Of a DNA stretch of 64,000 nt, positions 1 to 23,063 are shown piece after piece. Position 1 is the first letter of the stretch, and every line of letters begins with the position of its first letter. Source of the stretch: a virus. The notes beneath the pieces were generated by a model. The model was not told where the DNA came from. It worked only from the letters and a program-made list of their open reading frames with translations, and made no database searches. The DNA lies in the IMG/VR virus record IMGVR_UViG_3300028840_006907, positions 256,001 to 320,000 of that record, one strand, 5' to 3'. A program made the translations under genes and the position numbers.

Positions 1-2
1 TA

Positions 3-656
3 AGATATTATGGAGGATTATTTTTCGAATCATCGAGTAGTATGTATTTATCTTCCGTATCATCATTTACTCCTCCTGCAAATTGTTCTGTCTCTTTTTG
101 GCTCTTTCATAGTAATGATGGTGGCACTCCTAGAATAGTTAGCCATAGTGATAATTGGGAAATATGGATAAATGCAAGTAATCAAATATCTAATGATATG
201 AATTGGGGTACTTCTTTGGTATCTAGTGCTACTATTAATACTAATACACGATATTATATAGTATGTACAAGAGCTTCTGACAATACTTTACAAATATATG
301 TAAATGGCCAATTTGATAATTCTAGTAGTGGTGGAACAGGTTCACCAGGATCGGCCACGTTTTATGTAGGTGTTAAACAAACATTATTACAATATTTTGA
401 TGGTTATATAGAAGATTTAAGAATTTATAATAGAGTCCTTTCAGCAAATGAAATAGCCACTATTTATGGCTGTAAAGGAACAGATTCCATTACTTATGGC
501 TTAATTCATAAATGGCCTATGCAAGAAAAGGCAATAGATGTGGTTGCTAGTGGAACCGGGTCTATAATAGATTTAGGTCCAAGTAGACTAGATTTGACTC
601 CTAATAATAATCCTACTTATTCTGGAACACAATTGAAATTTAAAAGGTTTGGATAA
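3..656 (+). CDS. fiber-like protein, C-terminal LamG-type jellyroll module (5' partial, gene starts upstream of window)
   Basis: Frame is open from nt 3 with no stop; track ORF 42-656 aligns with the C-terminal ~200 aa of three downstream paralogs (FTPP..CSVSFW, YxVCT, EDLRIYNR, basic C-terminus). Confidence 0.55.
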   Translation, partial: RYYGGLFFESSSSMYLSSVSSFTPPANCSVSFWLFHSNDGGTPRIVSHSDNWEIWINASNQISNDMNWGTSLVSSATINTNTRYYIVCTRASDNTLQIYVNGQFDNSSSGGTGSPGSATFYVGVKQTLLQYFDGYIEDLRIYNRVLSANEIATIYGCKGTDSITYGLIHKWPMQEKAIDVVASGTGSIIDLGPSRLDLTPNNNPTYSGTQLKFKRFG

Positions 657-2878
657 TGGGTAAACAAATTTTTAGTTCAGAGGGTTCCGATACTTTCACT
701 GTACCAAAAGGAGTGACTTCCATTACTGTCAAGGCATGGGGTGCAGGAGCTGGTGGTGGAGGGGGTGGAACGGCTAGTGTTGGTGGAGCCGGAGGTGGTG
801 GAGGTTATGTTCAGGGTGATATATCTGTAACACCTGAAGAAACCCTTAATATTCATGTAGGTGGAAATGGAGGTTTAGGAACTTTTACAGGTACCGCAGC
901 TTCTGGTGGTGGGGGAGGAGGTAAATCTTCAGTTTACAGAAGTACAACTCCTTTATTTGTAGCTGGCTCTGGAGGAGGCGGAGGTGGTGGTGATAATTCA
1001 TCAGGGACTCCGGCGGGAGCCGGAGGTGCTGGTGGAGGAAGTACTGGTGGGTCTGGTGGTTCTTCCGGAGGAGCTAGTGGCGGTAGTGGTGGCACTCAGT
1101 CAATTGGTGGAACACAGGGTTCTGGAGGTCAAAATGCAGGAGTTTTTGGAAAAGCTCGTGCAGAAACCACTTTAAATAATGCCTTAAATTTTGATGGTGA
1201 TCCTGAATATGTTACAATAGGAACAGATTCTGTTTTTAATTTTACTAATTCTTTTACCCTTGAATGTTGGATTAAACCCGATAATGTAACAGGATCTAAA
1301 AGGGTAATAAGTTCAAGATCATCTGATACCAATAATGGAGTTGGATTTGGTATTAACGGTAACAATCCTGCTTTTACAACATATGGTAAACAAGATTTTA
1401 CTTCTACTGGAACCGTTTCAGCAGGAGTTTGGGCTCATATAGCAGTAGTCTTTACTTCAGGTAATAATGCAAGATTTTATATAAATGGAGAGTTTATAAA
1501 TCAGGTAGACGGTACCCAAGCAGCTACAACTTCTGGTATATATATGGTTCTTGGTATGCTTGGTTTTTATGATGATGAACAATATTGGGTAGGTGAACTT
1601 GATGAAATAAGAATGTGGAATGATGAGCGTACTGATAAAGAGATATCTGATTATTATGCTCAAACTCTTACAGGTAGTGAAGCAAACTTAGTCGCTTACT
1701 ATAAATGTAATGAATCATCAGGTACAAATCTTCCCGACGAAACCACAAATAGTAATGATGGCACACTCCAAAATATGGAAGATGCTGATTGGGTTACATC
1801 AAGTTGGTCTCCATTGACAGACGCTGCTGATGCTGGGGCTGGTGGTGACGGTGGAATGGGTACTGGCACTGGGGGTGGTGGCTCTGGTGGCACAACATAT
1901 GGCGGTGATGGTGGAATTGGTGATAGTGGTGGCACCCCTGGATTTTCTGGCGGTGGCGGAGGCGGTGCAGGCTATGGTGGAGGTGGCGGGGGATCATGTT
2001 CGGTTTCTGGCGGAGACGCTGGTGGTGGTGGGGGCGCTGGCTCTAGCTATATTATAGGTACCGCTACGTCAACTACCAATACGCAAGCATCAGGCCAGAA
2101 TCCACCTAATACGGGCGACCCAGACTATACTGGTTCTGTAGGAGTTGGAGGAAATGGGGGTAGTACAAGTACAAATGGGAATAATGGTAATGATGGTTTA
2201 ATAGTTATCAGTTGGGTTGACCCTCCAGCATATATAGGTATGAAATTTGAATCAGATAGTTCACAATTTTTGTCTTCTGTAGCAAATTTTACCGCTCCTT
2301 CTAGTACAACTGTTACATTTTGGTTATCTTCTACTAATCTCACAGGATTAAAAAGAATTATTGGTTGGTCCGATTTTTGGGAAATAAAGACGATTGATAA
2401 TGATATATCTAATGATTTAAATGGAGAGTTAACCACTTATTCTACAACTCCATTAGATCTTAATACTCTTTATCATGTTGCTTGTACATATAATTCCTCT
2501 GATGATGCTGCGAAAGTATATATAGATGGGTCTCTTGATGGTACGGGTTCAAATACTGAAACTCCTTCTGGAACAACACTACAAATAGGTTTTAGACCTG
2601 GTGCACCTGACGGTTATTTTGACGGTTATTTAGGTGATATAAGAATTTATGATAGGGTTTTATCTGATTTTGAAATAGCCACAATTCATGCATGTCGAGG
2701 AACTGATGGAATAGTCCATGGTTTACGTAATAGGTATTTATTAAATGAAAGAGCAATGAATGTTGCTGCTGATGGGACAGGTTCGGTTAAAGATATGGCT
2801 CAGGATCAATTAAACATGACTCCAAATAATAGTCCTGTTTATGAAGGAACAACATTAAAATATAGAAGGATGGGTTGA
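656..2878 (+). CDS. Gly-rich repeat protein with two LamG-type jellyroll segments (fiber/adhesin-like)
   Basis: 740 aa; ATG overlaps upstream stop (TAATG); long poly-Gly tracts; LamG-like motifs LDEIRMWN and GDIRIYDR; C-terminal module shared with neighbours. Confidence 0.7.
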   Translation: MGKQIFSSEGSDTFTVPKGVTSITVKAWGAGAGGGGGGTASVGGAGGGGGYVQGDISVTPEETLNIHVGGNGGLGTFTGTAASGGGGGGKSSVYRSTTPLFVAGSGGGGGGGDNSSGTPAGAGGAGGGSTGGSGGSSGGASGGSGGTQSIGGTQGSGGQNAGVFGKARAETTLNNALNFDGDPEYVTIGTDSVFNFTNSFTLECWIKPDNVTGSKRVISSRSSDTNNGVGFGINGNNPAFTTYGKQDFTSTGTVSAGVWAHIAVVFTSGNNARFYINGEFINQVDGTQAATTSGIYMVLGMLGFYDDEQYWVGELDEIRMWNDERTDKEISDYYAQTLTGSEANLVAYYKCNESSGTNLPDETTNSNDGTLQNMEDADWVTSSWSPLTDAADAGAGGDGGMGTGTGGGGSGGTTYGGDGGIGDSGGTPGFSGGGGGGAGYGGGGGGSCSVSGGDAGGGGGAGSSYIIGTATSTTNTQASGQNPPNTGDPDYTGSVGVGGNGGSTSTNGNNGNDGLIVISWVDPPAYIGMKFESDSSQFLSSVANFTAPSSTTVTFWLSSTNLTGLKRIIGWSDFWEIKTIDNDISNDLNGELTTYSTTPLDLNTLYHVACTYNSSDDAAKVYIDGSLDGTGSNTETPSGTTLQIGFRPGAPDGYFDGYLGDIRIYDRVLSDFEIATIHACRGTDGIVHGLRNRYLLNERAMNVAADGTGSVKDMAQDQLNMTPNNSPVYEGTTLKYRRMG

Positions 2879-2881
2879 TAA

Positions 2882-5173
2882 ATGGGACAGCAATCTTTCA
2901 GTACAGCCGGTTTAACTTCATTTCAAGTTCCTGTTGATATTACATCTATAACGGTAAAGTGTTGGGCTGGTGGAGCTGGTGGAGGAGCCGGGGGGACTTC
3001 TGGTGTTGGAGGAGTGGGTGGCGGTGGTGGCTATGTTCAGGGAGATATAACCGTCACTCCTTCGGAAATACTTAGTATTCATCTTGGGGGTGCTGGGAAT
3101 TCAGGAAGTTTTGGAGGAACTTCTGGTTCTGGAGGTGGTGGTGCTGGTCTATCTAGTGTCTCGCGTGGCTCAACACCTTTATTTGTAGCCGGAGCAGGTG
3201 GGGGAGGCGGTGGTGGAGACAATAGTAATCCGGCTGCTGGTGGAGCTGGTGGGGCAGGAGGTTCCTCTACCGGAGGAACTGGAGGCAGTTCTCTAAATGC
3301 CAATGGAGGAACTGGTGGAAGTCAAGTATCTGGTGGTACTGGTGGTACTGGTGGTATAGTTTCAGGTGCTGCTGGAGGTGCCCCTATTTCTGCAGCAGCT
3401 AATTTTGGTAATTGCCTTGACTTTGATGGAACAGATGAATGGGTCTCTTCAGCTAATTCTTATTCTAATCCTCAGACTTTTACAACTGAGTTATGGTTTA
3501 AAACTACCACTACTTCAGGAGGATTATTAATTGGTTTCGGAAACAGTCAAACAGGAACTTCTACCAGTTATGACAGAAGGATCTGGTTAAGTAATTCCGG
3601 AAATGTCTATTGTGGAGTTTATGCTGGATTAATTTTAGGAGTTCAGACGGTAAATTCTTCTGGTACATATAATGATGGAGAATGGCATCATGTTGCAATG
3701 GTCCATGACTCTGGAGGGTTTGAATTATTTGTTGATGGTATATCACAAGGAACAAATGCAAATCCTTCACAAGATACTTTTACAGGTTACTGGCGACTCG
3801 CAGGAACTACGGTTTGGTCGGGATGGTCTCCTGCTCCTACTAATAATTATTATGTAGGTCAAATTGATGAAGTCAGATTTTGGCAAGAAGCTCGAACAAC
3901 TTGTCAATTAATAAATAATGCAAATAAATATTTAGCTGGAACTGAGACTAATTTAGCTTTTTATTGGAAATTAAATGAATCTTCCGGTTCTACCGCAAAT
4001 GATGAAACTACCAATAATAATGATGGCACACTCCAAAATATGGAAGATGCAGACTGGGTTACTTCTAGTTGGAGTGGTAAGTGGATAGGTATTGGTACTG
4101 GAGGTGATGGTGGAGACGGTAATGATGGAGGGACTACTAGAGGATCAGAGGCTAATGGAGGTATCACTTGTGCTGGATCAGGTGGTACAGCCGATGTCGG
4201 TGCTGCTGGTTATGGTGGCGGTGGTGGCGGTGGCGCTGGTTACGGTGGAGGTGGAGGAGGCTCGGCTTCTCAAGCTTCAAATGCTGGTGGAGGTGGTGGA
4301 GGAGGTGGCTCCAGTTATATAATTGGTTCTGCTACGTCAACTACCAATACGCAAGCTTCGGGACAGAATCCTCCCAACACAAGCGACCCGGACTATACTG
4401 GTTCTGCAGGAGTTGGTGGAAATGGGGGTGCTACAAGTACTGCAGGATCAAATGGTAATAATGGTTTGATTGTTATTAGTTGGACAGAACCTCCGACATA
4501 TGTTGGGATAACATTTGTAGCGAGTAGTTCTCAAAGATTGGCATCAGTAGCAAATTTTACTCCTCCTCAAAATTGCTCCGTATCATGGTGGTTAAAACTA
4601 TCTTCGTTGAATCAGTTTGGGAGGACAGCAAGTCTAAGTGTTAATTGGGAAATAGGTCTATCTGATAATGCAGGTACTCCTACTGCTAATGGTATTATTA
4701 ATGCTATGAATAGTGGTGCTCTTTTGTATTCTTCAACAAGTCTTCAAGCTGATCTTCGTTATCATGTTGTATGTACAGCAACTTCTAGTGCCCGTCAAAT
4801 ATTTTTAAATGGTGTTCTTGATAATAGTGCTGCTTCTGGAGGGACTGCTCCTGCAGCAGGGACTCTTTATGTTGGATGTCAATATGGTGGAACTCTATAT
4901 TTTCTTGATGGGGCTATAGAGGATTTAAGGGTATATAATCGGATAATTACTGCAGAAGAAGTGGCTACAATTTATGCTTGTGAAGGAAGAGACGGTATAA
5001 CATATGGCTTAATACATCGATGGCCTATGAATGAAGGTGCAGCAGGTGTTGTAGCGAGTGGTACTGGTTCTGTAAAAGATGAGGCTACAAATCAATTGAA
5101 TTTAACTGCAACTAATAGTCCAGTTTATTCTGGATCACAATTGAATTATAGACGAAAATATAGGACTCATTAA
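2882..5173 (+). CDS. Gly-rich repeat protein with two LamG-type jellyroll segments (paralog of 656-2878)
   Basis: 763 aa; same architecture; shares identical peptide NDGTLQNMEDADWVTSSWS and near-identical DNA patches with 656-2878. Confidence 0.7.
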   Translation: MGQQSFSTAGLTSFQVPVDITSITVKCWAGGAGGGAGGTSGVGGVGGGGGYVQGDITVTPSEILSIHLGGAGNSGSFGGTSGSGGGGAGLSSVSRGSTPLFVAGAGGGGGGGDNSNPAAGGAGGAGGSSTGGTGGSSLNANGGTGGSQVSGGTGGTGGIVSGAAGGAPISAAANFGNCLDFDGTDEWVSSANSYSNPQTFTTELWFKTTTTSGGLLIGFGNSQTGTSTSYDRRIWLSNSGNVYCGVYAGLILGVQTVNSSGTYNDGEWHHVAMVHDSGGFELFVDGISQGTNANPSQDTFTGYWRLAGTTVWSGWSPAPTNNYYVGQIDEVRFWQEARTTCQLINNANKYLAGTETNLAFYWKLNESSGSTANDETTNNNDGTLQNMEDADWVTSSWSGKWIGIGTGGDGGDGNDGGTTRGSEANGGITCAGSGGTADVGAAGYGGGGGGGAGYGGGGGGSASQASNAGGGGGGGGSSYIIGSATSTTNTQASGQNPPNTSDPDYTGSAGVGGNGGATSTAGSNGNNGLIVISWTEPPTYVGITFVASSSQRLASVANFTPPQNCSVSWWLKLSSLNQFGRTASLSVNWEIGLSDNAGTPTANGIINAMNSGALLYSSTSLQADLRYHVVCTATSSARQIFLNGVLDNSAASGGTAPAAGTLYVGCQYGGTLYFLDGAIEDLRVYNRIITAEEVATIYACEGRDGITYGLIHRWPMNEGAAGVVASGTGSVKDEATNQLNLTATNSPVYSGSQLNYRRKYRTH

Positions 5174-5220
5174 TTATAAAATTTACATATAAGATCTATA
5201 TAACATATAAGGAGGTTCAA

Positions 5221-5736
5221 ATGTATAAAACAGCATTAGTATGTGGAGTCTGGGACAAATTGCATGAAGGGCATAAAAATATAATTAAATATTCTATAGA
5301 AAATTCTGAATTACTGAAAATTTTTGTATTAGAAATTAATATACATGATAGACATGAAGAGCCTTTTATACCTTATGAAGAAAGAAAAAAAACAGTCGAA
5401 AATTATGTCCTTTCTTTAGGGGCAAGAGATAAGGTACAAATAATAGGAAAAAAAGATGCTACGGAAGTTATGGTATTGGATGAATTGAGAACTGTAGATT
5501 GCGCCTTTGCTTGTGCTAAAGATAAAAATCAGCAAATTTTAGAAATGATAAAAATAACTCAAGATAGAGTTGCTAAATTAGAAGGCCCTGATGGACGTAA
5601 GCCATTTGTTATGGAATGGGTAGATCCTGTGAAAAATGATGAAGGAAAAATAATCTCTTCAAGTAAATACAGGAAAAAAAGCCGTTTAGAAAAAGAAAAG
5701 AGAGTAAATTCTTCAGGTGGATATGGTCGATTTTAA
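5221..5736 (+). CDS. HIGH-motif nucleotidyltransferase (cytidylyltransferase-like)
   Basis: AGGAGG RBS upstream; N-terminal GVWDKLHEGH matches the GxFDxxHxGH signature of glycerol-3-P cytidylyltransferase-type enzymes. Confidence 0.5.
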   Translation: MYKTALVCGVWDKLHEGHKNIIKYSIENSELLKIFVLEINIHDRHEEPFIPYEERKKTVENYVLSLGARDKVQIIGKKDATEVMVLDELRTVDCAFACAKDKNQQILEMIKITQDRVAKLEGPDGRKPFVMEWVDPVKNDEGKIISSSKYRKKSRLEKEKRVNSSGGYGRF

Positions 5737-6959
5737 TGGCACAATATAAAGTTCGTACATCTAATGCTAACCAAGGCCAGTATATGAAAAATGCTGGCTC
5801 TCGAACTACTACTGGTCCATTACAATTTGGGAGATCTGGTAAAGGAACAGCAAATGATGTTCGAATAGCTTTAAGATGGCAACCAAATATAGATATGACT
5901 GGTAAATATATGATAGTTACTTCTGCCTATATTCGTGTTACAAGAGAGACTGAAGATACTGGCGCATTTACAGCTACAGTTAGAGTGCATAATGGTTCTG
6001 CTCCTGATTTATCTACAACTGATTTAGCTTGGGGTTATTCTGATATAGGTTATTCTCAATCATGGTCGATAGCAGATTCATGGAGTGCTGATACTGAATT
6101 TACTTCACCTGATATGAAAAGCGCAGTACAAGCTTGGTTTAATAGGAGTGCTCATTCAAGTACGGATTGGATTGGTTTCATTATTGATGATGGTGATTCT
6201 GCTGATGATGAATATAAAGGAGTCTATGATGCTGATCATTCTACTTCAAGTTATCGTCCTGAATTAGAAATAAATTATAAAATATATTCAGGAGGAGATA
6301 ATGGTGGATTATCTTTTACAGCATCGAGTTCTCAGTATTTGGAATCAGTTAGTAATATTACACCTCCTGCAACATCTTCAGTATCTTTTTGGATTTATTT
6401 AACTGAATTGAATCAATTTGGTCGAACTATTAGTCGATTTGCTTATGAAATTGGTCTATCAGATAATGCCGGATCTCCTCCTAATGGGATAGTTAATGCT
6501 ATGACTAGTGGAACTATACTTGTATCAAGTTCTCTTACAGTGAATACCCTTTATCATTGTGTTTGTACGGCCTCATCTACTGCTCGACAGATATATCTTA
6601 ATGGAGTATTGAATACTTCAGGAGGTGGTGGTACGGTATCAACAGCAGGGACTATGTGGATCGGGTCACAAGATGGTGTTGATTTTTTCCTATCTGGTCA
6701 TTTAGAAGATATACGAATTTATAATCGTATCCTTACATTAGCTGAAGTTCAAACTATTTATGCTTGCCAAGGCTCAGATAGTATTACTTATGGATTAATT
6801 CATAGATGGCTTATGAATGAGGGTCCGATAAGTTCGGTAGCAAGTGGTACTGGACTAGTAAAAGATTATGGGATAAATCAAGTAAATATGACTCCATTTA
6901 ATAGTCCAGTTTTTTTAGGAACTCAAATGAAAAATAGGAATAAGTATAGGACCCATTAG
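5736..6959 (+). CDS. fiber-like protein, unique N-terminal domain plus shared C-terminal LamG-type module
   Basis: 407 aa; ATG overlaps upstream stop; C-terminal ~200 aa paralogous to 3-656 and to C-termini of 656-2878 and 2882-5173 (EDIRIYNR, ...KYRTH end). Confidence 0.65.
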   Translation: MAQYKVRTSNANQGQYMKNAGSRTTTGPLQFGRSGKGTANDVRIALRWQPNIDMTGKYMIVTSAYIRVTRETEDTGAFTATVRVHNGSAPDLSTTDLAWGYSDIGYSQSWSIADSWSADTEFTSPDMKSAVQAWFNRSAHSSTDWIGFIIDDGDSADDEYKGVYDADHSTSSYRPELEINYKIYSGGDNGGLSFTASSSQYLESVSNITPPATSSVSFWIYLTELNQFGRTISRFAYEIGLSDNAGSPPNGIVNAMTSGTILVSSSLTVNTLYHCVCTASSTARQIYLNGVLNTSGGGGTVSTAGTMWIGSQDGVDFFLSGHLEDIRIYNRILTLAEVQTIYACQGSDSITYGLIHRWLMNEGPISSVASGTGLVKDYGINQVNMTPFNSPVFLGTQMKNRNKYRTH

Positions 6960-7048
6960 GTTGTAATAATGTATAAATATTTCATTAATAATATTACAGG
7001 AATATGTCGATTTTAAAAAGATTTGGATAAAAATAAGGAGATTTTAAA

Positions 7049-8779
7049 ATGGCAGATGTATTAAATAGAACAACGAAAGAACAGAGGTTCAGTGTTCATA
7101 CTCCCGATTATTCAGTAGTAGACTGGATAATAAATCCAGATCTATCCGGAGTGATTGGAGTCCCAGTAAAATATTGGAAAATAGATGGTGATGTTGTTTC
7201 AGAGATGAATCAATCTGAAAAAGATGCGGTTGATAGTGCTCTATTGCCTGGTATAAAAACAGCTAAAAAAGCTTCTTTAAGAACAGAGGGTGACCAATTA
7301 ATAGAAAATCAAGGCTATTCAGCAGGTAAACAAAGATCATTAATTTCTCAGCATTCTAAAAGTACTAAAATGAAACCCAAAAGAGAAAAGTATGTTAGAG
7401 ATTTTATGGATTGGATTGAGCAAGTAGATGAAGAAGTCGTATTAAAACAAGATTTGGTAGATGATCAGACTTCAGAAGCAGGAGTAAATTCTGTTATTTT
7501 AGATTCTGCAGGTCTTATTGCTGCTGATCCTGGTGTTACCATTTCAGGTACTCTTGATACTACAGATAGTTCTAGCTTAGATAATTATCTTGATACAAAT
7601 GCTGAAGTGACTGATCCATTAACCGGTATTGTAGGTCCGTGGGATCAAATGCAGATATTAAATCATCGACGTGAAATATATAATGACTCATCAAATCCAA
7701 TTTATTGGCCTGATAATACTGCCATTTTAGGTTCGGGAGGTTATTTAGAAGATCATGCCAATCGGATTAATAATCTTGAAGTGATTCATGGAAAGTTAGG
7801 TTGGCATAATCAATTAATAACTCAAGCGACTTATACTCGACCTAAAGATCTGCTCATTTATTATGGGTGGTTAAACTCTTATAATTCAGGAATTCTTTCT
7901 TGGAACAATGAGAGCGTGGCTCAGCATATGGCGAGATATAGTCTTCTTGTTTTTGGAGACGGTATTCAGGATCCTGGCCATGGAGATTATGCCAATACTC
8001 AAGTTATTGTTCCACGTGTAAAGGCTTTAAGTTGTTATTCTGAAATTTATGGCTATGTAACTGTTGATCAAACTTTTAGTGATTTTACTTCAAAAGTTGA
8101 TCAATGGGATACCTTACAAGTAGATGGAATATTTTTAGATGAAGCGGGTTATGATCATGGTCGGACTCGGGATGAATTTAATCAGAGAGTAGATTATGTC
8201 CATGGCAAAACTTATGCTAATAAATGTTTTGCTAATGCTTGGAATACAGATCATATTTTAGGAATAACCAATGATCCTAGTTATCCTGATTCTACATATA
8301 ATGACTCTTGTGCTGAATCTAATTTAACTTTAAACGATTGGATTCTTCTTGAAAGTTTTCCTGTCAATACTACAGCATATGCAGCAAATGATGGGTATGA
8401 ATCTATCAGTGATTGGGCCACAAGAGGAGTAAAAGCGAAAGATTTAAGAGCTACATATGGTGTAAATTTTGCCAGTGTTAGTATGATTTCCAATGACCAT
8501 ACAGATAATACTGCTTTATCTAACTTTGCCTTTACTTCTTCGATGATGTTTTCATTAGAAGGTCATGGAACCTCAGATACCAATTATGCTGCTAGTTCTG
8601 CTAGGGTTAATTATTTTCCTCGTCCAGATATCACACAAATGGGAGTTGTTTATAGCTTAAATTGTTCTGTCCAAATTGATGCGAATGATTCGTCAGTCTA
8701 TCATAGATATACACCGAATGCTAAAATGTCGTTAGATTTTTCTGATGGTGCTCATACAAGTACTATAGCAAAATTTTAA
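7049..8779 (+). CDS. putative TIM-barrel glycoside hydrolase (GH114/spherulin-4-like), long form
   Basis: 576 aa; C-terminal ~300 aa paralogous to 9276-10208 (LLIYYGWLN, LVFGDGIQDP, VDGIFLDEAGYD); family assignment is by motif resemblance only. Confidence 0.5.
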   Translation: MADVLNRTTKEQRFSVHTPDYSVVDWIINPDLSGVIGVPVKYWKIDGDVVSEMNQSEKDAVDSALLPGIKTAKKASLRTEGDQLIENQGYSAGKQRSLISQHSKSTKMKPKREKYVRDFMDWIEQVDEEVVLKQDLVDDQTSEAGVNSVILDSAGLIAADPGVTISGTLDTTDSSSLDNYLDTNAEVTDPLTGIVGPWDQMQILNHRREIYNDSSNPIYWPDNTAILGSGGYLEDHANRINNLEVIHGKLGWHNQLITQATYTRPKDLLIYYGWLNSYNSGILSWNNESVAQHMARYSLLVFGDGIQDPGHGDYANTQVIVPRVKALSCYSEIYGYVTVDQTFSDFTSKVDQWDTLQVDGIFLDEAGYDHGRTRDEFNQRVDYVHGKTYANKCFANAWNTDHILGITNDPSYPDSTYNDSCAESNLTLNDWILLESFPVNTTAYAANDGYESISDWATRGVKAKDLRATYGVNFASVSMISNDHTDNTALSNFAFTSSMMFSLEGHGTSDTNYAASSARVNYFPRPDITQMGVVYSLNCSVQIDANDSSVYHRYTPNAKMSLDFSDGAHTSTIAKF

Positions 8780-8788
8780 GAGGATTTT

Positions 8789-9262
8789 ATGGATGTTTTA
8801 TTTGATGTTTATGATTCTGTTGGGGGTGTAGATGTTGATAGTGCTGTAACAGTATTATTTGATACTTCGAGATATATATGTAATAATGTGTCTTTATTAT
8901 CAGGAGAAATTAATATCTTACCTAATTCTCATAGTATAATTCCTCCAGACAATGATATCTTATTACTTATGGCAAAAGTTACAATAGATGCTGTTAGTGG
9001 GAATAATCAAACTCAAGCAAAGATATGGCTCGAAGTTGACACAGGTTCAGGTTATGTAGTGGTACCTGGAACTGATAGTTATTCTTATAGTATTTCAAAT
9101 AGTGTGGGTCATGGTACTGCTATTATAAATACCACATATCAAATTAGTAAATTAAATAAGATTATTTGTAAATTTAGAGTTAGAGCAGAAAAATCAGTGG
9201 GGAATAATTCTTTAAGTACACTAGCTCAAGCTAGTAATTTCATAGGTTTAATTAACGAATGA
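8789..9262 (+). CDS. hypothetical protein
   Basis: 157-aa ORF with RBS-like AAGAGGA upstream, located between the two glycosidase-like paralogs. Confidence 0.55.
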   Translation: MDVLFDVYDSVGGVDVDSAVTVLFDTSRYICNNVSLLSGEINILPNSHSIIPPDNDILLLMAKVTIDAVSGNNQTQAKIWLEVDTGSGYVVVPGTDSYSYSISNSVGHGTAIINTTYQISKLNKIICKFRVRAEKSVGNNSLSTLAQASNFIGLINE

Positions 9263-9275
9263 GGGAGGATTATTT

Positions 9276-10208
9276 ATGAGACCAAAGAACCTGTTAATTT
9301 ATTATGGGTGGCTTAACGCTTATAATAGCGCAGAAAATCAATGGCAAAATGAGAACGTGGCGATTGACCTTTGTAAATATAATGTACTCGTTTTTGGAGA
9401 TGGGATTCAGGATCCAAGTCACGGGGATTTTGCAAATACTCAAGCAATACTCGCTCGAATCAGGGAATTAAACCCAGCTTCATTGATTTTCGGTTATGTG
9501 ACTGTAAACCAATCTATAACAGATTTTACTACAAAAGTAGTATTATGGAATGATCTTGAAGTTGACGGCATCTTTATGGATGAAGCAGGCTATGATTATG
9601 GGAAAAATCGTGCTGAGTTAAATAGTCGTATTGATGTTGTCCATAGTCAAGAGACAGCAAATACATGCTTTTTAAATGCTTGGAATATTGATCATATTCT
9701 TGGTATAGAAGAAGATTCAAATTTTCCTAATGCCACTTTTAATCCAGGTTTAGTAGATTCTAATGCTTATGAAGATGATTGGTATTTATTAGAAAGTTTT
9801 GCCGTTAATACTTCAGCTTATGGTACAAATGATGGGTATGCTAATGGAAGTGAATGGGTTGTTCGTGGAAATAAAGCTATAGAAAAACGAAAAGAATATG
9901 GTATAAAGTTAGCCTCAACTGGAATTATTAATGATGATAATCCTGAAGGTCAGAGTTTATTTGATTTTTGTTATAGGTCTGCATTGGCTTTTAGTTTAAA
10001 TGCCAATGGTACTTCGGATGCTTTTTATGGAGCTAGTTCTGCAGCTACTAAATATTGGGATCGTCCTAAACCTTATCATTTCACCAAAGAGGAAGAATTT
10101 TCTGTAGTGGAAGATCAGAAGACAGCTAATGCTTATATTAGATTTTTTCCATTCATGAAAGTAACTCTTAATTTCGGAACCAATAGTTCATCTATATTAA
10201 GATGGTAA
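9276..10208 (+). CDS. putative TIM-barrel glycoside hydrolase (GH114/spherulin-4-like), short form
   Basis: 310 aa; GGGAGG RBS; paralog of 7049-8779 C-terminal region. Confidence 0.5.
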   Translation: MRPKNLLIYYGWLNAYNSAENQWQNENVAIDLCKYNVLVFGDGIQDPSHGDFANTQAILARIRELNPASLIFGYVTVNQSITDFTTKVVLWNDLEVDGIFMDEAGYDYGKNRAELNSRIDVVHSQETANTCFLNAWNIDHILGIEEDSNFPNATFNPGLVDSNAYEDDWYLLESFAVNTSAYGTNDGYANGSEWVVRGNKAIEKRKEYGIKLASTGIINDDNPEGQSLFDFCYRSALAFSLNANGTSDAFYGASSAATKYWDRPKPYHFTKEEEFSVVEDQKTANAYIRFFPFMKVTLNFGTNSSSILRW

Positions 10209-10782: not shown

Positions 10783-11141
10783 TAACTGAAATTGATGATG
10801 ATAGTAAAGACATAAAGATAAAATTAGGAAATTTATTTGAAAAATATGAAAATCTTTATCGGGAAGGGAATAGACAGTTTAGAACAGAGAGAATAGCTTC
10901 TGCTGGGTCAATGGATGGTCTGGAAGAATTTCGTCGTTTGATGCTTATTGTAAAAAGAAATAAGGATGTAGTGGCCTCGCTAATGCGGGGTATAGCTAAT
11001 TTTAGGTCTATTTCAAATTTTAAGTTTGTAGAAGAGGAAGTAGAAATTTCAAAACCGAAACCAAAGAAAACAAAGAAAGCTACTCCTGAAAAAGTGATCA
11101 TACCTATACCAATAGTAGCGGAGGAATTTAATGGCGAATAA
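10761..11141 (+). CDS. hypothetical protein
   Basis: 126-aa ORF overlapping the previous by 22 nt; K/E-rich C-terminus. Confidence 0.5.
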   Translation: MPDFNKLITEIDDDSKDIKIKLGNLFEKYENLYREGNRQFRTERIASAGSMDGLEEFRRLMLIVKRNKDVVASLMRGIANFRSISNFKFVEEEVEISKPKPKKTKKATPEKVIIPIPIVAEEFNGE

Positions 11142-14100
11142 ACGAATAAGAGTTGTAACAGCGCAAGATAATGTACCGAAACGGGCAACTCGAAGAAAAG
11201 TAGTCAGCAGGGATACTAATCCTAAGGTGACAAATCTTACAGATAATGAAAAAAGAGCCAGACGGATTGCTACAACAACATCTATGGGATTCGGTCTTCG
11301 TTCTGCAAGTGATATTGTAAATAGCAGTGAAGCAAACTTTTACTCCCCCCAATTAAGTACTGATTTTCTTGAGAAGCCACAGAATCTACGTGAACGTAGA
11401 GCCTTTTATAGATTCTTTTATAATACGAATGAAATTATCGGACAATCTATTGATATTCATTCCACATTACCTCTTTCGAAATTGCGTCTCGTTCCTCCAA
11501 AAGGGAGAAATAAACATCAGAACAATTACGTTTTTAAGTTTTTCCAAAAGATGTGTGATGAAATGAAGCTCTTTAAAACACTTATTGAGATAACTCATGA
11601 ATACTTTCTTTTTGGTAATTGCTTGGCTAAGTATGCCGAGGTAAAGACTCCCTTTGGGTATAAGGAAGCGAAAGAGATAGAAGTAGGTGACTTCTTATTG
11701 ACAGATAAAGGGCGCTATAGGAAAGTCTTGAAGAAATGTGTAAGACCTTCTGAAAATGTTCTCAAAGTTAAATGTTGGAAAGATTTTAGGGAATTACCTG
11801 TTTCTGAAGAACATCCTATAGAAATATTAAAAGATGATGGCTTTGTTTTTGCCCAAGCTGAGGAATTGTCCTTAAACGACTATATCCGAGTTACTTGGCC
11901 TACTGAAATATCTGATAAAGAATATGTTCCTTTTGAATTTACAGATAAATATACAAAAGTGGAAAATGGCTATGAGTTAAAATTTGAAGTACTGCGTACC
12001 AGAAATCCTCATGCTTTCCGTGCTCGAAAAGAATTATTATCATGGCTAAGTTCTTTATCTAAACCAGTAATAAGGACAAGAAAACAGTTGTCCGAAGATT
12101 TTGATGTTCCTCTTTCCACATTGAATAATGTGATTTATAAACTTGGGAAAGAACTTGATGTAAAATTTCATGAAAGAATAGGTGCTTCAGGTTTTCAAAA
12201 AGGTTCTCAAGTAAAATGGTTTCCTATTGAGGACATAGAAGTCACGGATTCCTATAGTATTCATAAAACCCTATTTTTAGATGCTATTGATGGAATTGAT
12301 ATCAATAATGATTTTGCGTATCTTGCAGGATATTGGTTGGGAGATGGCACTTTGGCTCGTGATTCGCAAAGAGGGACATGGGGTCGTGGTTTGTGGCAAA
12401 TTTCAGTAGACCAGGAATTTGAAGGTTTAAATCGGATACGAAGTATTTTACATAATTTTTTTGGTTCTGGTAATGTGATAGAATGGAATTCGGGTAATCT
12501 ACTTTATTTAAAAGTTATCTCAAATCCTGCTTTTTTAGAATGGTGGGCTGAAAATTTTGGTGAAACTTCTTTCGGTAGAAATTATAAAAGAATTCCTGAA
12601 TGGTTTATAAAACTTCCTATGGAAAAACTTCAAAATTTTCTGGCAGGTTTGATAGATTCAGATGGTTGTATTAGTGTGAGTGGTGAAAATCAGAAATGTA
12701 TAACGAATATCTCAATGGCGTCTCGAAATATAATGGATTCTGTAAGAGACATAACTTTAAAATGTGGTGTTGTAGTGAATTACAACGAAGGAACTGAAAG
12801 AGAAGTTACTTTACCACAGGGAGACAAATGTTTCTCAAAAAAAATGTATACTGTAACAGCCTCAGATGAAGAATCCTGTAAAATTTTAACTCAATATGCC
12901 ACAAAAAGTATACCTGTAGATGCCCAATTCTCAGAAATGGGAAGATATTGGATAAGAACTGATTCAGGTTTAGCCTTCAAAATTAAGTCTATAAAAACAG
13001 AAGAATATAATGATTTAGTATACAATTTTGAAGTAGAAGAAGACCATACCTATCAAGTAGCTGGTTTTAGTACTCATAATTGCTTTATTTTTGCTGAAGA
13101 AGATGATTGGAAGGAAGGTATAACTACCGAAAACATAGGACAGAAAAAAGAAGAGGCCAAACAACGTTCCCAGCTCCTTAAAGATAAATTTGATATTAAG
13201 GATAAGAATCCTCTTTATAAAGGATGGAAAAAGCTTCTTATACTTCCTCCTGACCAGGTTAGGGTTCGTAAACTTCCTCTTACTGATGAGGTAGCAATTG
13301 AATATATGCCTGATCCGGAAACTCGAAAATTTCTGACTTCTGATATACCAATTGATCCTACAGATCCTACAAGAAGGTTAGACTATTCTATTTCTAATGA
13401 ATTGCGGGAAAAAGTACGTCAAAGTGGGGTTATACCTTTGGATACCGATCCTTATACAGGTTCACATGTTTTTCATCTGGCAAGAAAGAAATCACAATAT
13501 GAGCCTCTTGGTGTATCTATCGTTGAGCGTTGCATAAATACTCTTGTTTTAATGGATAAATTGAGACAGGCTCAGACATCGATTGCATCGCGTCACATGA
13601 CTCCTATGCGTGTTGTATGGGCTGAGGACTTAAATTCGGATGATGTCGATAATTTACGTGAGCAGGTTGATCTTGCTTTAGTAGATCCTGATTTCAGTAT
13701 TATTGCCAATTATGAAATTCACTGGGAAGAAATGGGATCGAATGGCCGTTTATTAGATGTAGAAGCGGAAATGGAAAGCTCATTAAATAGATTATTTGCC
13801 GGATTAGGTGTGACTCGGGAAATGTTAACTGGTGAAGGTACTTATACAGGGAGTAGAGTTTCATTAGAAATAATGAATACTATGTATCTTCTTTTCCGTG
13901 AAGTGCTCCAGGATTATATAGAAAATACATTGTTTAAGCCTATAGCTAAAAAGAAGGGTTTTATAGAATATGATGAATATGGTAATGAGACACTTCTTTA
14001 TCCGAAAATCAGTTTTACCCGATTGGCTATTAGAGATAATGAGCAATATTTTGACGCAGCCTTTCAGTTATATCAGAAGGGTTCAATTTCCATCGATCTT

Positions 14101-14484
14101 ATTTTGGATATTCTTAATATTGATCCTGATGCGACCAGGGAAAAGATTGAACAAGATCTGTTTACTGTTAATGATAGTCTTTTCAATGAAATGATGAGAA
14201 ACCTTTATACAAATGTGGCTGCCCCACTTGTAGAGGAAACTAATGTTACTGAGAAATTGGCTAAATATCTTCATTTAGAAAAGACTGAAAAACCTGAGGC
14301 CACAGAAGGTGAATCTCGATTTAGTTCTGTTAATGGAAAGGATTACAGGAAAAAGCTTTCAAAAGTCATGAAATACTTTATTGATAATCCTGAAAAATTA
14401 AATTCCATTTTTGCAAAGAATGGACAGTTAAAACCTAAACAAGCGAGAAATAATCAATGCGTTGTCGCTCAATCCCGGAATTAA
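11131..14484 (+). CDS. portal protein interrupted by an intein
   Basis: 1117 aa; GGAGG RBS; exteins (aa 1-163 and 651-1117) total ~630 aa and carry a portal-like LFAGLGVTREMLTGEG motif; sits upstream of scaffold-like and capsid-like genes. Confidence 0.6.
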   Translation: MANKRIRVVTAQDNVPKRATRRKVVSRDTNPKVTNLTDNEKRARRIATTTSMGFGLRSASDIVNSSEANFYSPQLSTDFLEKPQNLRERRAFYRFFYNTNEIIGQSIDIHSTLPLSKLRLVPPKGRNKHQNNYVFKFFQKMCDEMKLFKTLIEITHEYFLFGNCLAKYAEVKTPFGYKEAKEIEVGDFLLTDKGRYRKVLKKCVRPSENVLKVKCWKDFRELPVSEEHPIEILKDDGFVFAQAEELSLNDYIRVTWPTEISDKEYVPFEFTDKYTKVENGYELKFEVLRTRNPHAFRARKELLSWLSSLSKPVIRTRKQLSEDFDVPLSTLNNVIYKLGKELDVKFHERIGASGFQKGSQVKWFPIEDIEVTDSYSIHKTLFLDAIDGIDINNDFAYLAGYWLGDGTLARDSQRGTWGRGLWQISVDQEFEGLNRIRSILHNFFGSGNVIEWNSGNLLYLKVISNPAFLEWWAENFGETSFGRNYKRIPEWFIKLPMEKLQNFLAGLIDSDGCISVSGENQKCITNISMASRNIMDSVRDITLKCGVVVNYNEGTEREVTLPQGDKCFSKKMYTVTASDEESCKILTQYATKSIPVDAQFSEMGRYWIRTDSGLAFKIKSIKTEEYNDLVYNFEVEEDHTYQVAGFSTHNCFIFAEEDDWKEGITTENIGQKKEEAKQRSQLLKDKFDIKDKNPLYKGWKKLLILPPDQVRVRKLPLTDEVAIEYMPDPETRKFLTSDIPIDPTDPTRRLDYSISNELREKVRQSGVIPLDTDPYTGSHVFHLARKKSQYEPLGVSIVERCINTLVLMDKLRQAQTSIASRHMTPMRVVWAEDLNSDDVDNLREQVDLALVDPDFSIIANYEIHWEEMGSNGRLLDVEAEMESSLNRLFAGLGVTREMLTGEGTYTGSRVSLEIMNTMYLLFREVLQDYIENTLFKPIAKKKGFIEYDEYGNETLLYPKISFTRLAIRDNEQYFDAAFQLYQKGSISIDLILDILNIDPDATREKIEQDLFTVNDSLFNEMMRNLYTNVAAPLVEETNVTEKLAKYLHLEKTEKPEATEGESRFSSVNGKDYRKKLSKVMKYFIDNPEKLNSIFAKNGQLKPKQARNNQCVVAQSRN
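11620..13080 (+). mobile_element. intein with LAGLIDADG homing-endonuclease domain (in-frame within portal gene)
   Basis: Begins with Cys after FGN, ends ...STHN followed by Cys; two LAGLIDADG motifs (LAGYWLGDGTL, LAGLIDSDGCI); 487 codons. Confidence 0.75.
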
Positions 14485-19101: not shown

Positions 19102-19935
19102 ATGGCGAGAGAAAGATTGAGCTGGGATAAGAAGAAGGAAGCCGAACAAAAGAAACAGGCTGATCCTTACACAATGAATCAAGATCATACTAATCCACCA
19201 GCTTCGAAATACGATATTGGTGGTCCTTCTGAATTTGCAGAAGATCCAGATATGAAAACTCCATGGAAAAATGAGGGTCGTGTTGAGACTGGTCATCCTG
19301 CTCCAGCTCGTGAAGCAGTTAAAGCTGCTCGTCAGTTGGAAGACAAAGCTCTCAAATGCATTACCATTGCTCAGAGAATACTTCCAGGAGCCTCTGATAA
19401 CATTATCGAAGATCAAGCGACTGATTTTATGCATTTACCTGACAAATGCATCCTCGCTACTCTTCAACGTCAAGCTGAATTAGCAGAAAAGCTTGCTAAA
19501 GATGATGAGAAGGACGAGGAAAAAATGGAAGAAGAAAAGGAAGCTAAAGAAGAAAAAGTAGTTGAAGAAAAGCCTGCTGAAAAAGAAGCAGCTAAAGAAA
19601 AAGAAGAACCGGAAGAAGAGGAAGAAAAGGAAGCTAAAGAAGAAAAAGTAGCTGAAGAAAAGCCTGCTGAAAAAGAAGCAGCTAAAGAAAAAGAAGAGCC
19701 GGAAGAAGAAGAGGAAGAAAAGGAAGCTAAAGAAGAGCCAAAAAAAGAAGCTACCGCAGAAATGGATATTGAATTAGGTGGTGATAATAGTGTGGATCTT
19801 CTCGATTCAGTATTTGCTGCTGAAGAAAAACAAGGTGCAAAAAAACTTAGTGGGATAGTGAAACAGGCTTCATCAGAAGGTGAATTGGGTAGTCTCTGGA
19901 CTTCTCCACCTGATGTGTCTGAAGCTTTCAAATAA
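19102..19935 (+). CDS. scaffolding-like acidic repeat protein
   Basis: 277 aa; RBS GGAGG; extremely E/K-rich with tandem repeat EEKEAKEEKV(V/A)EEKPAEKEAAKEKEEPEEEEE; immediately upstream of capsid candidates. Confidence 0.55.
   Translation: MARERLSWDKKKEAEQKKQADPYTMNQDHTNPPASKYDIGGPSEFAEDPDMKTPWKNEGRVETGHPAPAREAVKAARQLEDKALKCITIAQRILPGASDNIIEDQATDFMHLPDKCILATLQRQAELAEKLAKDDEKDEEKMEEEKEAKEEKVVEEKPAEKEAAKEKEEPEEEEEKEAKEEKVAEEKPAEKEAAKEKEEPEEEEEEKEAKEEPKKEATAEMDIELGGDNSVDLLDSVFAAEEKQGAKKLSGIVKQASSEGELGSLWTSPPDVSEAFK
19531..19737 (+). repeat. in-frame tandem repeat (period ~90-93 nt, ~2.3 copies) inside scaffold-like gene
   Basis: Near-identical units at 19531-19620 and 19621-19713 plus a partial third copy. 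Confidence 0.8.
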
Positions 19936-20564: not shown

Positions 20565-21437
20565 ATGGCTGAAATTAGCAATCAAGTAAAACAAGAAATT
20601 ATTGCTGAGTATATTAAAACTGCCGGTGGACGTGCGAAACTCGCTGCGTCAATGACTCAGCCTTTACGTCTTAGGAGAGACTACACCAGTGTAGGTCGTA
20701 AGACTTTCTTGGTAGAACAGCTCCCTGACGGTGCATTACCAATTTATGACAAAGATCCTAATGTCACAGCATATGTGATTGGTGAAGAAGGTGCCAACAT
20801 TTTGGCTATCACCAAACCTCGCCGTGTCATTTTTCCTTTGTTTGAAATTGCATCCAATCCGGAAATTCCGTTAACTCAAATCAAAGAACGTCGTTTCGAT
20901 CTCATCGAACGTGCTCAAGACCTTGCTAAATCAGAAATTCAGGCTGAAGAAGACACACGTGTTTTTGAAGTTCTGGATGCTGTAGCAACAAATGGTTTTG
21001 ATAACATCGGTGCAACGAATGCAGATATCCCTGCAACTGCTCCTCTTACACCTTCAGACCTCGCTGATGCTTTTGCACTAGTAGAGCGCCATGATCTGCG
21101 TGTAGCAAGAGTATTTGCCAATGCACTGGATTACAGTGACATTCGTAAGTGGGGACGTGATGTTCTTGATATCGAGAGTCAGGCAACATTACTTAAAACT
21201 GGTCTTATGGCAACCGTTTGGGGAGCCCAGATCATAGTTTCAAGAAAAGTTCCTGTAGGATACATCTATGTATGTGCAGAACCTGAATTCTTTGGCCGGA
21301 TACCTGTCCGTACAGAGCTTACAGTTCTCTCTGCTGATGATCCACGTAACCGTACAATCGGATTTTCATGTTTTGAAAATCTTGGTATTGGTTGCCACAA
21401 TCCTCTCGGCTTGGATCGTGTCGTACTTTCTCGATAA
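20565..21437 (+). CDS. major capsid protein candidate (HK97 fold)
   Basis: 290 aa; RBS GGGAGG; followed by a strong terminator; head-module context; resemblance to HK97-fold/encapsulin-type shell proteins is by eye only. Confidence 0.55.
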   Translation: MAEISNQVKQEIIAEYIKTAGGRAKLAASMTQPLRLRRDYTSVGRKTFLVEQLPDGALPIYDKDPNVTAYVIGEEGANILAITKPRRVIFPLFEIASNPEIPLTQIKERRFDLIERAQDLAKSEIQAEEDTRVFEVLDAVATNGFDNIGATNADIPATAPLTPSDLADAFALVERHDLRVARVFANALDYSDIRKWGRDVLDIESQATLLKTGLMATVWGAQIIVSRKVPVGYIYVCAEPEFFGRIPVRTELTVLSADDPRNRTIGFSCFENLGIGCHNPLGLDRVVLSR

Positions 21438-21892: not shown

Positions 21893-22028
21893 GCTAAAAA
21901 AATTTGTAATTATTCTTCATTTAAAACGTTTTGATTTAAAAGAAGTTATCATATTTTATGGTAACTTTTTTTCATTTGTTTAAAAAATTTTGCTGTTCGT
22001 TTCCCTTCTAAACCTTGTATTAATATGT

Positions 22029-23063
22029 ATGGGAAAGAAATGCAAAGATAAGCACTGTTTTAATGATGCTGAAATAAAAGGTTATTGTGTAAGGCATTAT
22101 TTTAGCCTACCTAGATGTGAGTATCCTGGGTGTCCGAATATTACTCTTGTTAAAAACGGCCTCTGTAAAAAACACTCTGAATTAGATCCAAAAGACATAC
22201 CTAATTATAAACCGAAAAGAAGACAGGAATCGGTTAAAAGGGAAATTAAGTTTCCTAAAAATTGGAATCATTTTTCTTTGGAACAGAAAAAAATCCTTCT
22301 TAATAAGGAAACGAAGTCTAAATTAATAATATATATCTTAAAAAAGGATCAAAGTTTTGATGTAAAGAATGCTTGTAAAAGGAGGCTTCTGGAATTAGGG
22401 TGTGAAATACCAAAAGATTTAACGTATAAATGTAAAGTCCCTGGTTGTGATAATGGTCCAAGTTCGTTAAATCATTATACTAGTGGATTTTGCCAAACTC
22501 ATTATCAGCAATATCTAAAAGGAATAATAGATAAAGACGGTAAATCAATCAGGGATTTGGTAGATGTAGGGAAACACAATGCTAATATATCTCCTGAAAG
22601 GGCTATATTATCTAAATATAATACTTTAATTAAAGGCATACACCATATCAGGAAAGAATTGCGAAATCTGAGAGATATGTCCTTTGACATGGATTATAAA
22701 TTTAATTTCTTTCCGCAATTAGGGTTTGTTGAAGACAGTTTAAAATTTATTTATAGTCCCCATTTTATTCTGAAGAATACATCGTTTTTGAAAAACACTA
22801 CATTAAAGGAGATCTTGGGAGAGAAAGAAGAACACGCACAGGTGATGTTGAAATTAGATGGCAATGAATATAAGGGGGAATTGATTCAGGGAGATGAATC
22901 AAAAATATTCATTACTGATAAAATAGATAAGAAAGGTTCAGTAGTTCTTTTTTTGAGAGGTATAGAAGATTTTACAGAATATCCTTTTGAATGCAAAGCT
23001 TATGATAAGGAAACTAACATAGTACAGAATATACGAATAGAGGAAATTCGTGAAGATAAGTAG
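22029..23063 (+). CDS. Cys/His-rich repeat zinc-finger protein (putative DNA-binding)
   Basis: Start set at first ATG (track start is TTG at 21990); three copies of Cx3-4(G)Cx7-12GxCxxH(Y): CFNDAEIKGYCVRHY, CEYPGCPNITLVKNGLCKKHS, CKVPGCDNGPSSLNHYTSGFCQTHY. Confidence 0.55.
   Translation: MGKKCKDKHCFNDAEIKGYCVRHYFSLPRCEYPGCPNITLVKNGLCKKHSELDPKDIPNYKPKRRQESVKREIKFPKNWNHFSLEQKKILLNKETKSKLIIYILKKDQSFDVKNACKRRLLELGCEIPKDLTYKCKVPGCDNGPSSLNHYTSGFCQTHYQQYLKGIIDKDGKSIRDLVDVGKHNANISPERAILSKYNTLIKGIHHIRKELRNLRDMSFDMDYKFNFFPQLGFVEDSLKFIYSPHFILKNTSFLKNTTLKEILGEKEEHAQVMLKLDGNEYKGELIQGDESKIFITDKIDKKGSVVLFLRGIEDFTEYPFECKAYDKETNIVQNIRIEEIREDK

Follow-up and report, generated by a model that had tools for sequence, protein, structure and literature searches.

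Few huge phages have been cultured, and the ways in which they recognise hosts are poorly understood. The problem takes concrete form in an array of genes at the left end of a 64,000-nucleotide (nt) stretch of viral DNA (IMG/VR virus record IMGVR_UViG_3300028840_006907, positions 256,001 to 320,000; the whole stretch is referred to here as the window): what do the array genes encode, and how have they come to differ from one another? The array (positions 1 to 6959) comprises genes 1, 2, 3 and 5, all on the + strand, with a nucleotidyltransferase-like gene between genes 3 and 5. The array proteins are, with a probability of roughly 0.6, virion-borne, fibre-associated lectin-like adhesins, most likely for host-surface glycans. 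A preliminary description of the stretch had proposed a diversifying receptor-binding or adhesin array; an adhesin-type role is supported by fold and gene context, while receptor binding is inferred from the same two sources.

The four proteins are united by a C-terminal LamG + tail module (C-module). The last ~210 amino acids (aa) of genes 1, 2, 3 and 5 align at 45-50% identity, individual copies of the module being 41-61% identical, and carry the motifs FTPP..SVSFW, YHxxCT and EDLRIYNR and the tails KYRTH, RFG or RMG. Pfam PF13385 (Laminin_G_3) is matched by all four genes well above the cut-off (64.6-154.5 bits versus 27.6), with two matching stretches each in genes 2 and 3. The preliminary description holds in these respects, namely the position of the four genes, their common module of LamG type, the quoted motifs and the basic tails. 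The module consists of a Laminin_G_3 jelly roll followed by a ~55-aa return-strand tail (GLxxRWxxNE...G.G..KD....LN.TP.N.P.Y.G..L.(Y/F)(R/K)R), which is homologous to a 'link' behind the internal LamG of genes 2 and 3. The C-module and the internal unit are thus alike in design, and the 'basic tail' is the same return element. An AlphaFold2 (AF2) model of gene 3, built from 55 homologs (predicted local distance difference test (pLDDT) 90.8, predicted template modelling score (pTM) 0.77), predicts the module to be a folded domain, a two-sheet jelly roll superposable on LG, LNS and pentraxin domains. The PHROG matches of the array proteins are virion structural proteins, via the LamG part.

The poly-Gly tracts of genes 2 and 3 are modelled as the two halves of a folded TNF-like/polyglycine-II glycine-rich domain, and not as linkers. 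The predicted fold combines a beta-sandwich with stacked extended glycine segments, and in a fold search it matches the ALK receptor domain and the tail-fibre tip of cyanophage Pam3. Gene 2 scores 21.8 bits (E 2e-4) with the Pfam glycine-rich profile Gly_rich_2, below the cut-off of 24.3; once the internal LamG is deleted, 4 of 8 glycine-rich domains match the Pfam profile (best E 6.4e-5), and several homologs have precomputed PF21722 or PF12810 matches. A profile of the LamG-deleted domains found nothing among PDB sequences, a search in which the glycine composition probably defeats HMMER. In the gene 3 model, the domain opens with a beta-strand that begins at residue 2, and no helix comes before it; given this N-terminal position, the protein would not be a gp24-type fibre (gp24 being the tail fibre of Pam3), although the tip domain is the same. 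The tracts are locally GC-rich, as had been described (52-55% versus 34% for the window), which is fully explained by a glycine content of 38-43% (GGN codons). Antisense open reading frames (ORFs) in the tracts (e.g., 1699-1935 and 3079-3303, Pro-rich) are by-products of GGN repeats and were rejected as genes. In the middle of the first Gly tract (971-1100 versus 3197-3330), codon identity between genes 2 and 3 at identical residues is 0.06-0.21, below the ~0.45 expected gene-wide; Gly runs that align ambiguously, or a tendency to avoid DNA repeats, may be the reason.

The preliminary description had listed a second LamG-like segment as an addition to the two large genes. The segment is present but is not a mere addition: alignment identifies it as a cassette inserted into the glycine-rich domain. 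In homologs P0011, P0014 and P0012, the glycine-rich domain (~300 aa) runs uninterrupted and no cassette is present, whereas in genes 2 and 3 a LamG unit of 208-219 aa separates the two halves (in gene 2, glycine-rich N-half, type-A cassette, glycine-rich C-half, and LamG + tail module). The cassette ends are fixed, starting at xGNCLxFDG and ending at NMxDxDW(V/Q). Its last ~40 residues (LxxYWKLNE..G....D.....DG.L.NM.D.DW) correspond to the strand motif that normally precedes LamG_3; in the cassette this motif follows the LamG and is modelled with high confidence in gene 3. The return element is inferred to bring the chain back near its start. As the chain termini of LG-type jelly rolls are adjacent, a LamG unit closed in this way would be insertable into loops.

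Three old cassette types are distinguished across twelve homologs: type A (gene 2, P0005, P0007, P0008 and P0009), type B (gene 3, P0002, P0003, P0004 and P0006) and type C (P0010 and P0013). Cassettes are 21-31% identical between types and 41-75% within types. By contrast, the flanks (glycine-rich halves and link) are 47-92% identical whatever the cassette type, and their similarities are independent of type. Among relatives, the cassette is present in or absent from the glycine-rich domain and is also nested in two other domains, so that the apparent hosts, by alignment, are the glycine-rich domain, another LamG and a B-type domain. The B-type domain of P0013 harbours a type-A cassette that shares 59% identity with the gene 2 cassette, and when cassettes are deleted in silico, the host domains realign with their uninterrupted relatives at 45-68% identity.

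The placement of the C-module suggests a division of labour. In syntenic arrays, there is one C-module at the end of each separate polypeptide, whether the domains are split or fused; P0010, in which the domains are fused into one polypeptide, has a single terminal C-module, and P0013 is an exception that has none. The C-module would be required for every separate polypeptide to attach to one shared site on the virion, for which the candidate is a conserved C-terminal globular domain of a collagen-like fibre encoded upstream, while variable glycan binding would be supplied by the N-terminal domains and the grafted LamG cassettes. The docking role in particular is put forward tentatively, with the odds somewhat against it. 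A serious rival, likewise on the unlikely side, reverses the polarity: the C-module would be the distal glycan-binding tip, and the diverse N-terminal domains (glycine-rich, B and orphan) would anchor at different virion sites. This arrangement fits poorly with the glycine-rich domain being the receptor-binding tip in Pam3 gp24, where glycine-rich domains are assigned to host recognition (PMC9608196), and being distal in Bxb1 gp33, the outermost part of the tail-tip side appendage (PMC12646305). That fused polypeptides retain only one C-module also speaks more for an assembly handle than for a binding tip. The LamG superfamily is very large, with 92,911 representatives at E <= 0.001 in an exhaustive profile search, and the complete module lies at the very C-terminus in about 20 of the top 150 clusters. 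Some of these clusters pair it with other, unrelated N-terminal domains of binding type (e.g., RCC1 propellers), a further point against reversed polarity.

Genes 2 and 3 are full-length collinear paralogs (52% aa identity) that share two patches of identical DNA. The preliminary description gave these as 32 and 26 nt and attributed them to gene conversion or cassette shuffling. The second length is exact and the first is one base longer (33 nt); shuffling stands by virtue of the relatives, while the patches (P about 0.01 and 0.001), taken by themselves, support conversion only modestly. When both proteins are held fixed and codons are redrawn from local or genome codon usage, the probability of a longest run >= 33 is 0.007-0.011, of a second run >= 26 is 0.001, and of both is <= 0.0005, such that the shared segments exceed codon-resampled chance. 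At the 33-nt patch, the ortholog of gene 3 in the related contig L010 encodes the same peptide with six synonymous differences, whereas the paralog gene 2 has none; the 26-nt patch behaves similarly. Judged from these comparisons, a locally reduced synonymous divergence between the paralogs appears real but modest, and the patches would derive from short conversion tracts.

The same data can be read without conversion, with genes 2 and 3 as old independent duplicates whose patches result from strong purifying selection that keeps two peptides invariant, combined with AT-biased codons, or from nucleotide-level constraint. This interpretation is considered unlikely, yet it draws on several observations: both patches lie where the peptide is most strongly conserved; at identical residues, the fraction of identical codons is 0.50 versus 0.45 expected from codon usage, indicating that synonymous sites are nearly saturated overall; the distant ortholog L011_b754 has AATGATGGCACACTCC in common with the 33-nt patch (half of the patch); and in the glycine-rich C-half, gene 2, gene 3 and the L010 ortholog are about equally similar. 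The resampling probabilities and the six synonymous differences of the ortholog count against it, as does a quartet made up of genes 2 and 3 plus two gene 3 orthologs, in which parsimony-informative site patterns vary along the gene (chi2 35.3, df 12, p = 4e-4; permutation agrees). The first 36 codons of the L010 ortholog are nearer to gene 2. No match to the 33-nt patch was obtained when collections of metagenome and viral contigs, from which the parent contig is also missing, were searched with a degenerate pattern. Among sequenced phages, the only nucleotide match to positions 1-7000 is a low-complexity stretch of 130 nt, from a Gly tract, in cyanophage S-RIM12.

The strong evidence for shuffling comes from comparison with the relatives, in which the cassette sits in different hosts, occurs as three types and is accompanied by incongruent sites. 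The adhesins would diversify as genes are duplicated, fused and split and as homologous recombination takes place via the shared modules, which would provide the homology by which genes are added, removed, fused and split. A bolder extension, considered quite unlikely, is that the LamG unit is a self-contained graftable cassette that has repeatedly been recombined into the surface loops of unrelated domains. The 33-nt patch, at the nucleotide-conserved 3' boundary of the cassette, may then serve as a recombination handle, and strand complementation by the C-terminal tail, an orphan-looking element that resembles the beginning of another LamG cut short, could in addition provide docking. If this were true, the huge-phage lineage would have a natural domain-grafting route to receptor-binding diversity.

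Gene 5 bears on the same process. No full-length homolog of it was found. In the C-module, it shares 59-61% identity with gene 3 and with the L010 ortholog, and its 3' flank (6960-7048) is clearly homologous to the downstream flank of that ortholog, such that the 3' end of gene 5 is, on this homology, the positional ortholog of the end of the L010 gene. Accordingly, the nucleotidyltransferase-like gene and the N-terminal domain of gene 5 look inserted via C-module recombination. The N-terminal domain of gene 5 is not confidently folded (pLDDT 30-55), resembles the DNRLRE-like N-terminal domains of relatives weakly (hhalign probability 21%), and has no BLASTP similarity to the N-terminal domain of gene 1. 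The product of the inserted gene is nucleotidyltransferase-like (cytidylyltransferase or PPAT-like), by matches below the curated cut-offs, and the gene is absent from the syntenic arrays of relatives.

The coordinates of the array are collected in Table 1. Gene 1 is cut by the left edge of the window and is 385 aa at full length on the parent contig. Its stop overlaps the start of gene 2 (656), genes 2 and 3 nearly abut (2878/2882), and the stop of the nucleotidyltransferase-like gene overlaps the start of gene 5 (5736); the genes are thus probably co-translated, and the region is probably a translationally coupled array. Promoter- and terminator-like sites are not in excess in the region, and no tRNA or Rfam family was found there.

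Table 1. Positions of the array genes, their parts and adjoining features in the window.
Feature	Position	Strand	Content and basis
Gene 1 (3' part)	1-656	+	ORF listing 42/3-656; PF13385 E 6e-23
Gene 1, in-window content			C-terminal LamG + tail module and last residues of N-terminal 'B' domain
Gene 2	656-2878	+	740 aa; ORF listing, Pfam match, paralog alignment
Gene 2, glycine-rich N-half	about 656-1160	+	Equivalent of gene 3 2882-3385
Gene 2, type-A LamG cassette	1172-1795	+	aa 173-380, LNNALNFDG to NMEDADWV; return-strand 'link' motif included
33-nt patch	1753-1785 = 4018-4050	+	Encodes NDGTLQNMEDA; 3' boundary of LamG cassette
Gene 2, counterpart of gene 3 4061-4483	1796-2215	+	
26-nt patch	2063-2088 = 4331-4356	+	Encodes ATSTTNTQA; glycine-rich C-half
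Gene 2, C-terminal LamG + tail module	2252-2878	+	Pfam match, C-terminal alignment
Gene 3	2882-5173	+	763 aa; architecture of gene 2 with type-B cassette
Gene 3, glycine-rich N-half	2882-3385	+	N-half of predicted TNF-like/polyglycine-II domain
Gene 3, type-B LamG cassette	3404-4060	+	aa 175-393, FGNCLDFDG to NMEDADWV
Gene 3, segment after cassette	4061-4483	+	Glycine-rich C-half; best-conserved part between genes 2 and 3
Gene 3, C-terminal LamG + tail module	4520-5173	+	Pfam match, alignment, model
Cytidylyl/adenylyl-transferase-like gene	5221-5736	+	171 aa; within the array, between genes 3 and 5
Gene 5	5736-6959	+	407 aa; orphan N-terminal domain 5736-6320, LamG + tail module 6318-6959
Intergenic stretch	6960-7048	+	Homologous to 3' flank of gene 3 ortholog in L010
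Conserved downstream neighbours	7049-10208	+	576 aa, 157 aa and 310 aa

The wider gene context places the array beside a collagen-like fibre gene. The capsid protein (20565-21437) is 76.6% identical to that of the uncultured 485-kb phage LR745208.1, and its identity to the capsid proteins of Tunturiibacter phage Tunturi_5 and Bacillus phage G is 49.5% and 39.9%, respectively. These values identify the source as a phage-G-related huge phage; an identical gene 3 protein occurs on two contigs (388,651 bp and 469,617 bp). A giant collagen-like gene (G-X-Y repeats; L009 1-6606, >2400 aa) lies directly upstream of window position 1. The collagen-like protein has a conserved ~170-aa C-terminal globular domain, and a collagen-like gene (445 to >3000 aa) precedes the array in the relatives L010, L011, L014, L016 and L018; in L017, a 3081-aa gene instead follows a single array gene. 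The label 'fiber-like' in the preliminary description therefore does not suit the array proteins, which are strings of globular domains; the fibre is the product of the collagen-like giant gene. The array slot is fixed and holds 1-4 genes across related contigs, which combine the same domains in different ways (DNRLRE-like, B, glycine-rich with or without cassette, and C-module). The array is followed in most of the five relatives that carry the collagen-like gene upstream by a 576/578-aa gene and a ~310-aa gene, and in the window and most syntenic relatives it precedes the portal, protease and capsid genes. In a different phage, homolog P0004 (glycine-rich domain and type-B LamG, without C-module) is encoded in a myovirus baseplate cluster with Gp138_N, sheath initiator and Phage_Wedge1.

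Two observations adjoin this context. The products of 7049-8779 (576 aa) and 9276-10208 (310 aa) are partly paralogous, both with weak matches to Spherulin4 (glycoside-hydrolase-like), and share a 47-nt repeat (7839-7885 and 9280-9326, 81% identical, peptide PKDLLIYYGWLNSYN); by these matches, they may be glycoside-hydrolase-like depolymerases. On an unrelated myovirus-like contig (L019 3690-6353), two genes for glycine-rich-domain proteins (561 and 325 aa) lie side by side, with genes for baseplate hub and wedge immediately in front of them and a gene for a LamG + Phage_Wedge1 protein behind, and both proteins end in a common GRGxxNGV(L/M) tail in place of the C-module.

The proteins might alternatively act away from the virion, as intracellular or host-surface lectin-like factors, for example as substrate-recognition partners of a glycosylation gene set. 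The nucleotidyltransferase-like gene inside the array, about 28 kb of downstream genes for glycosyltransferases, sugar nucleotides and nonulosonic acids, and the glycosyltransferases close behind the array of L014 would suit such a role. This reading is nonetheless improbable in view of the tight linkage of the array to the collagen-like fibre gene across syntenic relatives, the fold matches to tail-fibre tip and appendage proteins, the homolog in a baseplate cluster, and the PHROG matches to virion structural proteins, even if these run through the LamG part. Lectin-fold phage tail proteins are classic targets of diversity-generating retroelements, but that the lectin-fold array is such a target and the patches are template/variable repeat remnants is exceedingly improbable, as the 64-kb window has no long template/variable repeat pair and no inverted repeats, the mismatches between copies involve all four bases, with no specificity for adenine, and mostly affect the third position of codons, and no reverse transcriptase was found among the ORFs scanned, which cover part of the window, the rest of the genome not being searched.

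Several points weigh against the reading of the array as recombining, virion-borne adhesins. The array adjoins head genes, and thus a head-fibre rather than a tail-fibre location is conceivable. The proposed docking module is only 41-61% conserved and is missing from P0004, P0006 and P0013. The glycine-rich domain matches Pfam only below the curated cut-off, its profile drew a blank among PDB sequences, and it begins at residue 1, with no counterpart of the helical N-terminus by which Pam3 gp24 docks. Some of the codon pattern in the 33-nt patch recurs in a distant ortholog, which leaves room for nucleotide-level conservation. Finally, tblastn of gene 3 detects no homolog in LR745208.1, which by its capsid protein is the nearest sequenced relative, in a search where the low-complexity filter may hide one. 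Across sequenced phages, tblastn with gene 3 and with the 576-aa neighbour yielded nothing beyond distant matches to LamG or to the N-terminal part, and a scan of viral contigs with gene 3 gave only LamG relatives at 25-30% identity.

Other features of the window include about 28 kb of + strand glycosylation and sugar-nucleotide genes (29866-57480). These encode fusions (GT2 + TPR + methyltransferase; GT2 + GT1 + methyltransferase), a UDP-glucose dehydrogenase, two epimerase/dehydratases, an NTP transferase, a formyltransferase, a PIG-L deacetylase, a DegT aminotransferase, a NeuB synthase and a CMP-type cytidylyltransferase. By its gene content, the set looks like a nonulosonic-acid pathway, an unusual phage cargo that is possibly used to glycosylate virion or fibre proteins. 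The portal gene (11131-14484, 1117 aa) includes an intein with a LAGLIDADG homing endonuclease (about aa 200-650), and the portal genes of relatives (612-630 aa) are without an intein. HNH/endonuclease VII-like genes (21990-23063 and 28608-29783) lie between the head genes and the glycosylation cluster and suggest homing-endonuclease traffic in the region. Just upstream of the capsid gene, ORF 19102-19935 (277 aa) has tandem acidic/lysine-rich repeats (EEKEAKEEK...; 19480-19725) of 18-nt periodicity, including a 90-nt copy that is 97% identical and 90 nt away; its product may be a scaffolding-type protein.

The significance of the locus lies in its conserved slot, in which a collagen-like fibre gene is followed by a variable LamG/glycine-rich array and then by glycoside-hydrolase-like genes, and which probably holds the host-range determinants of the phage-G-related lineage. 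The build is unusual, with one lectin cassette in three host domains and a common end module on separate polypeptides. If the boundaries and insertion sites hold structurally, they would offer design rules for grafting binding domains onto the polyglycine-II tip scaffold, which is already of engineering interest (Pam3 gp24 and S16 gp38). The ingredients are known, namely phage structural LamG domains, glycine-rich TNF-like fibre tips, inserted lectin modules and mosaic fibre genes. In a limited literature search, no description was found of their combination, in which a fixed-boundary LamG cassette nested in polyglycine-II and two other domains occurs together with one terminal LamG + return-strand module per polypeptide and with a variable array behind a collagen-like fibre in a huge-phage lineage.

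The closest known system is the tail fibre gp24 of cyanophage Pam3 (PDB 7YPX), with related glycine-rich tips in S16 gp38 and the Bxb1 gp33 'tail wing brush' (9D93). The gp24 protein has a helical baseplate-docking N-terminus and a distal tip at the C-terminus. By contrast, the glycine-rich domain of the array is N-terminal, a ~210-aa LamG cassette divides it, and another LamG module comes after it. A related fold occurs in the receptor kinases ALK and LTK, in their glycine-rich ligand-binding domain (PDB 7NX3, 7LS0, 7LRZ and 7LIR; PF12810/PF21722); the array genes are without a kinase or receptor context, their Pfam match is below the cut-off, and ALK does not have the LamG insertion.

Multi-LamG 'virion structural proteins' of T4-like cyanophages and giant multi-LamG proteins from metagenomes (phrog_8510, phrog_701 and phrog_18802) share the W-x-L-x-E...D...G-x-L motif in their LamG_3 units. 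These proteins are long tandem arrays within one polypeptide, whereas here single units are spread over several short genes and are nested. In lactococcal and Lactobacillus siphophages, carbohydrate-binding modules are inserted in tail proteins ('evolved' Dit/Tal, BppA-type). Like these, the array would have a lectin-type beta-sandwich grafted into the loop of a structural protein, in the siphophages a tail protein, where it adds glycan binding; the array differs in its host domains, of which one is glycine-rich, one is itself a LamG and one is beta-rich and unnamed, in its cassette, a LamG_3 with a return strand, and in its lineage, that of a huge phage-G-like myovirus. The tail-fibre genes of T-even and lambdoid phages are mosaics that exchange segments at conserved motifs. 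Similarly to these mosaics, the array has conserved flanks around highly diverged cassettes, incongruent phylogeny and short identical tracts; it is set apart by the insertion of whole domains into the loops of unrelated domains and by gene fusion and fission in a fixed slot.

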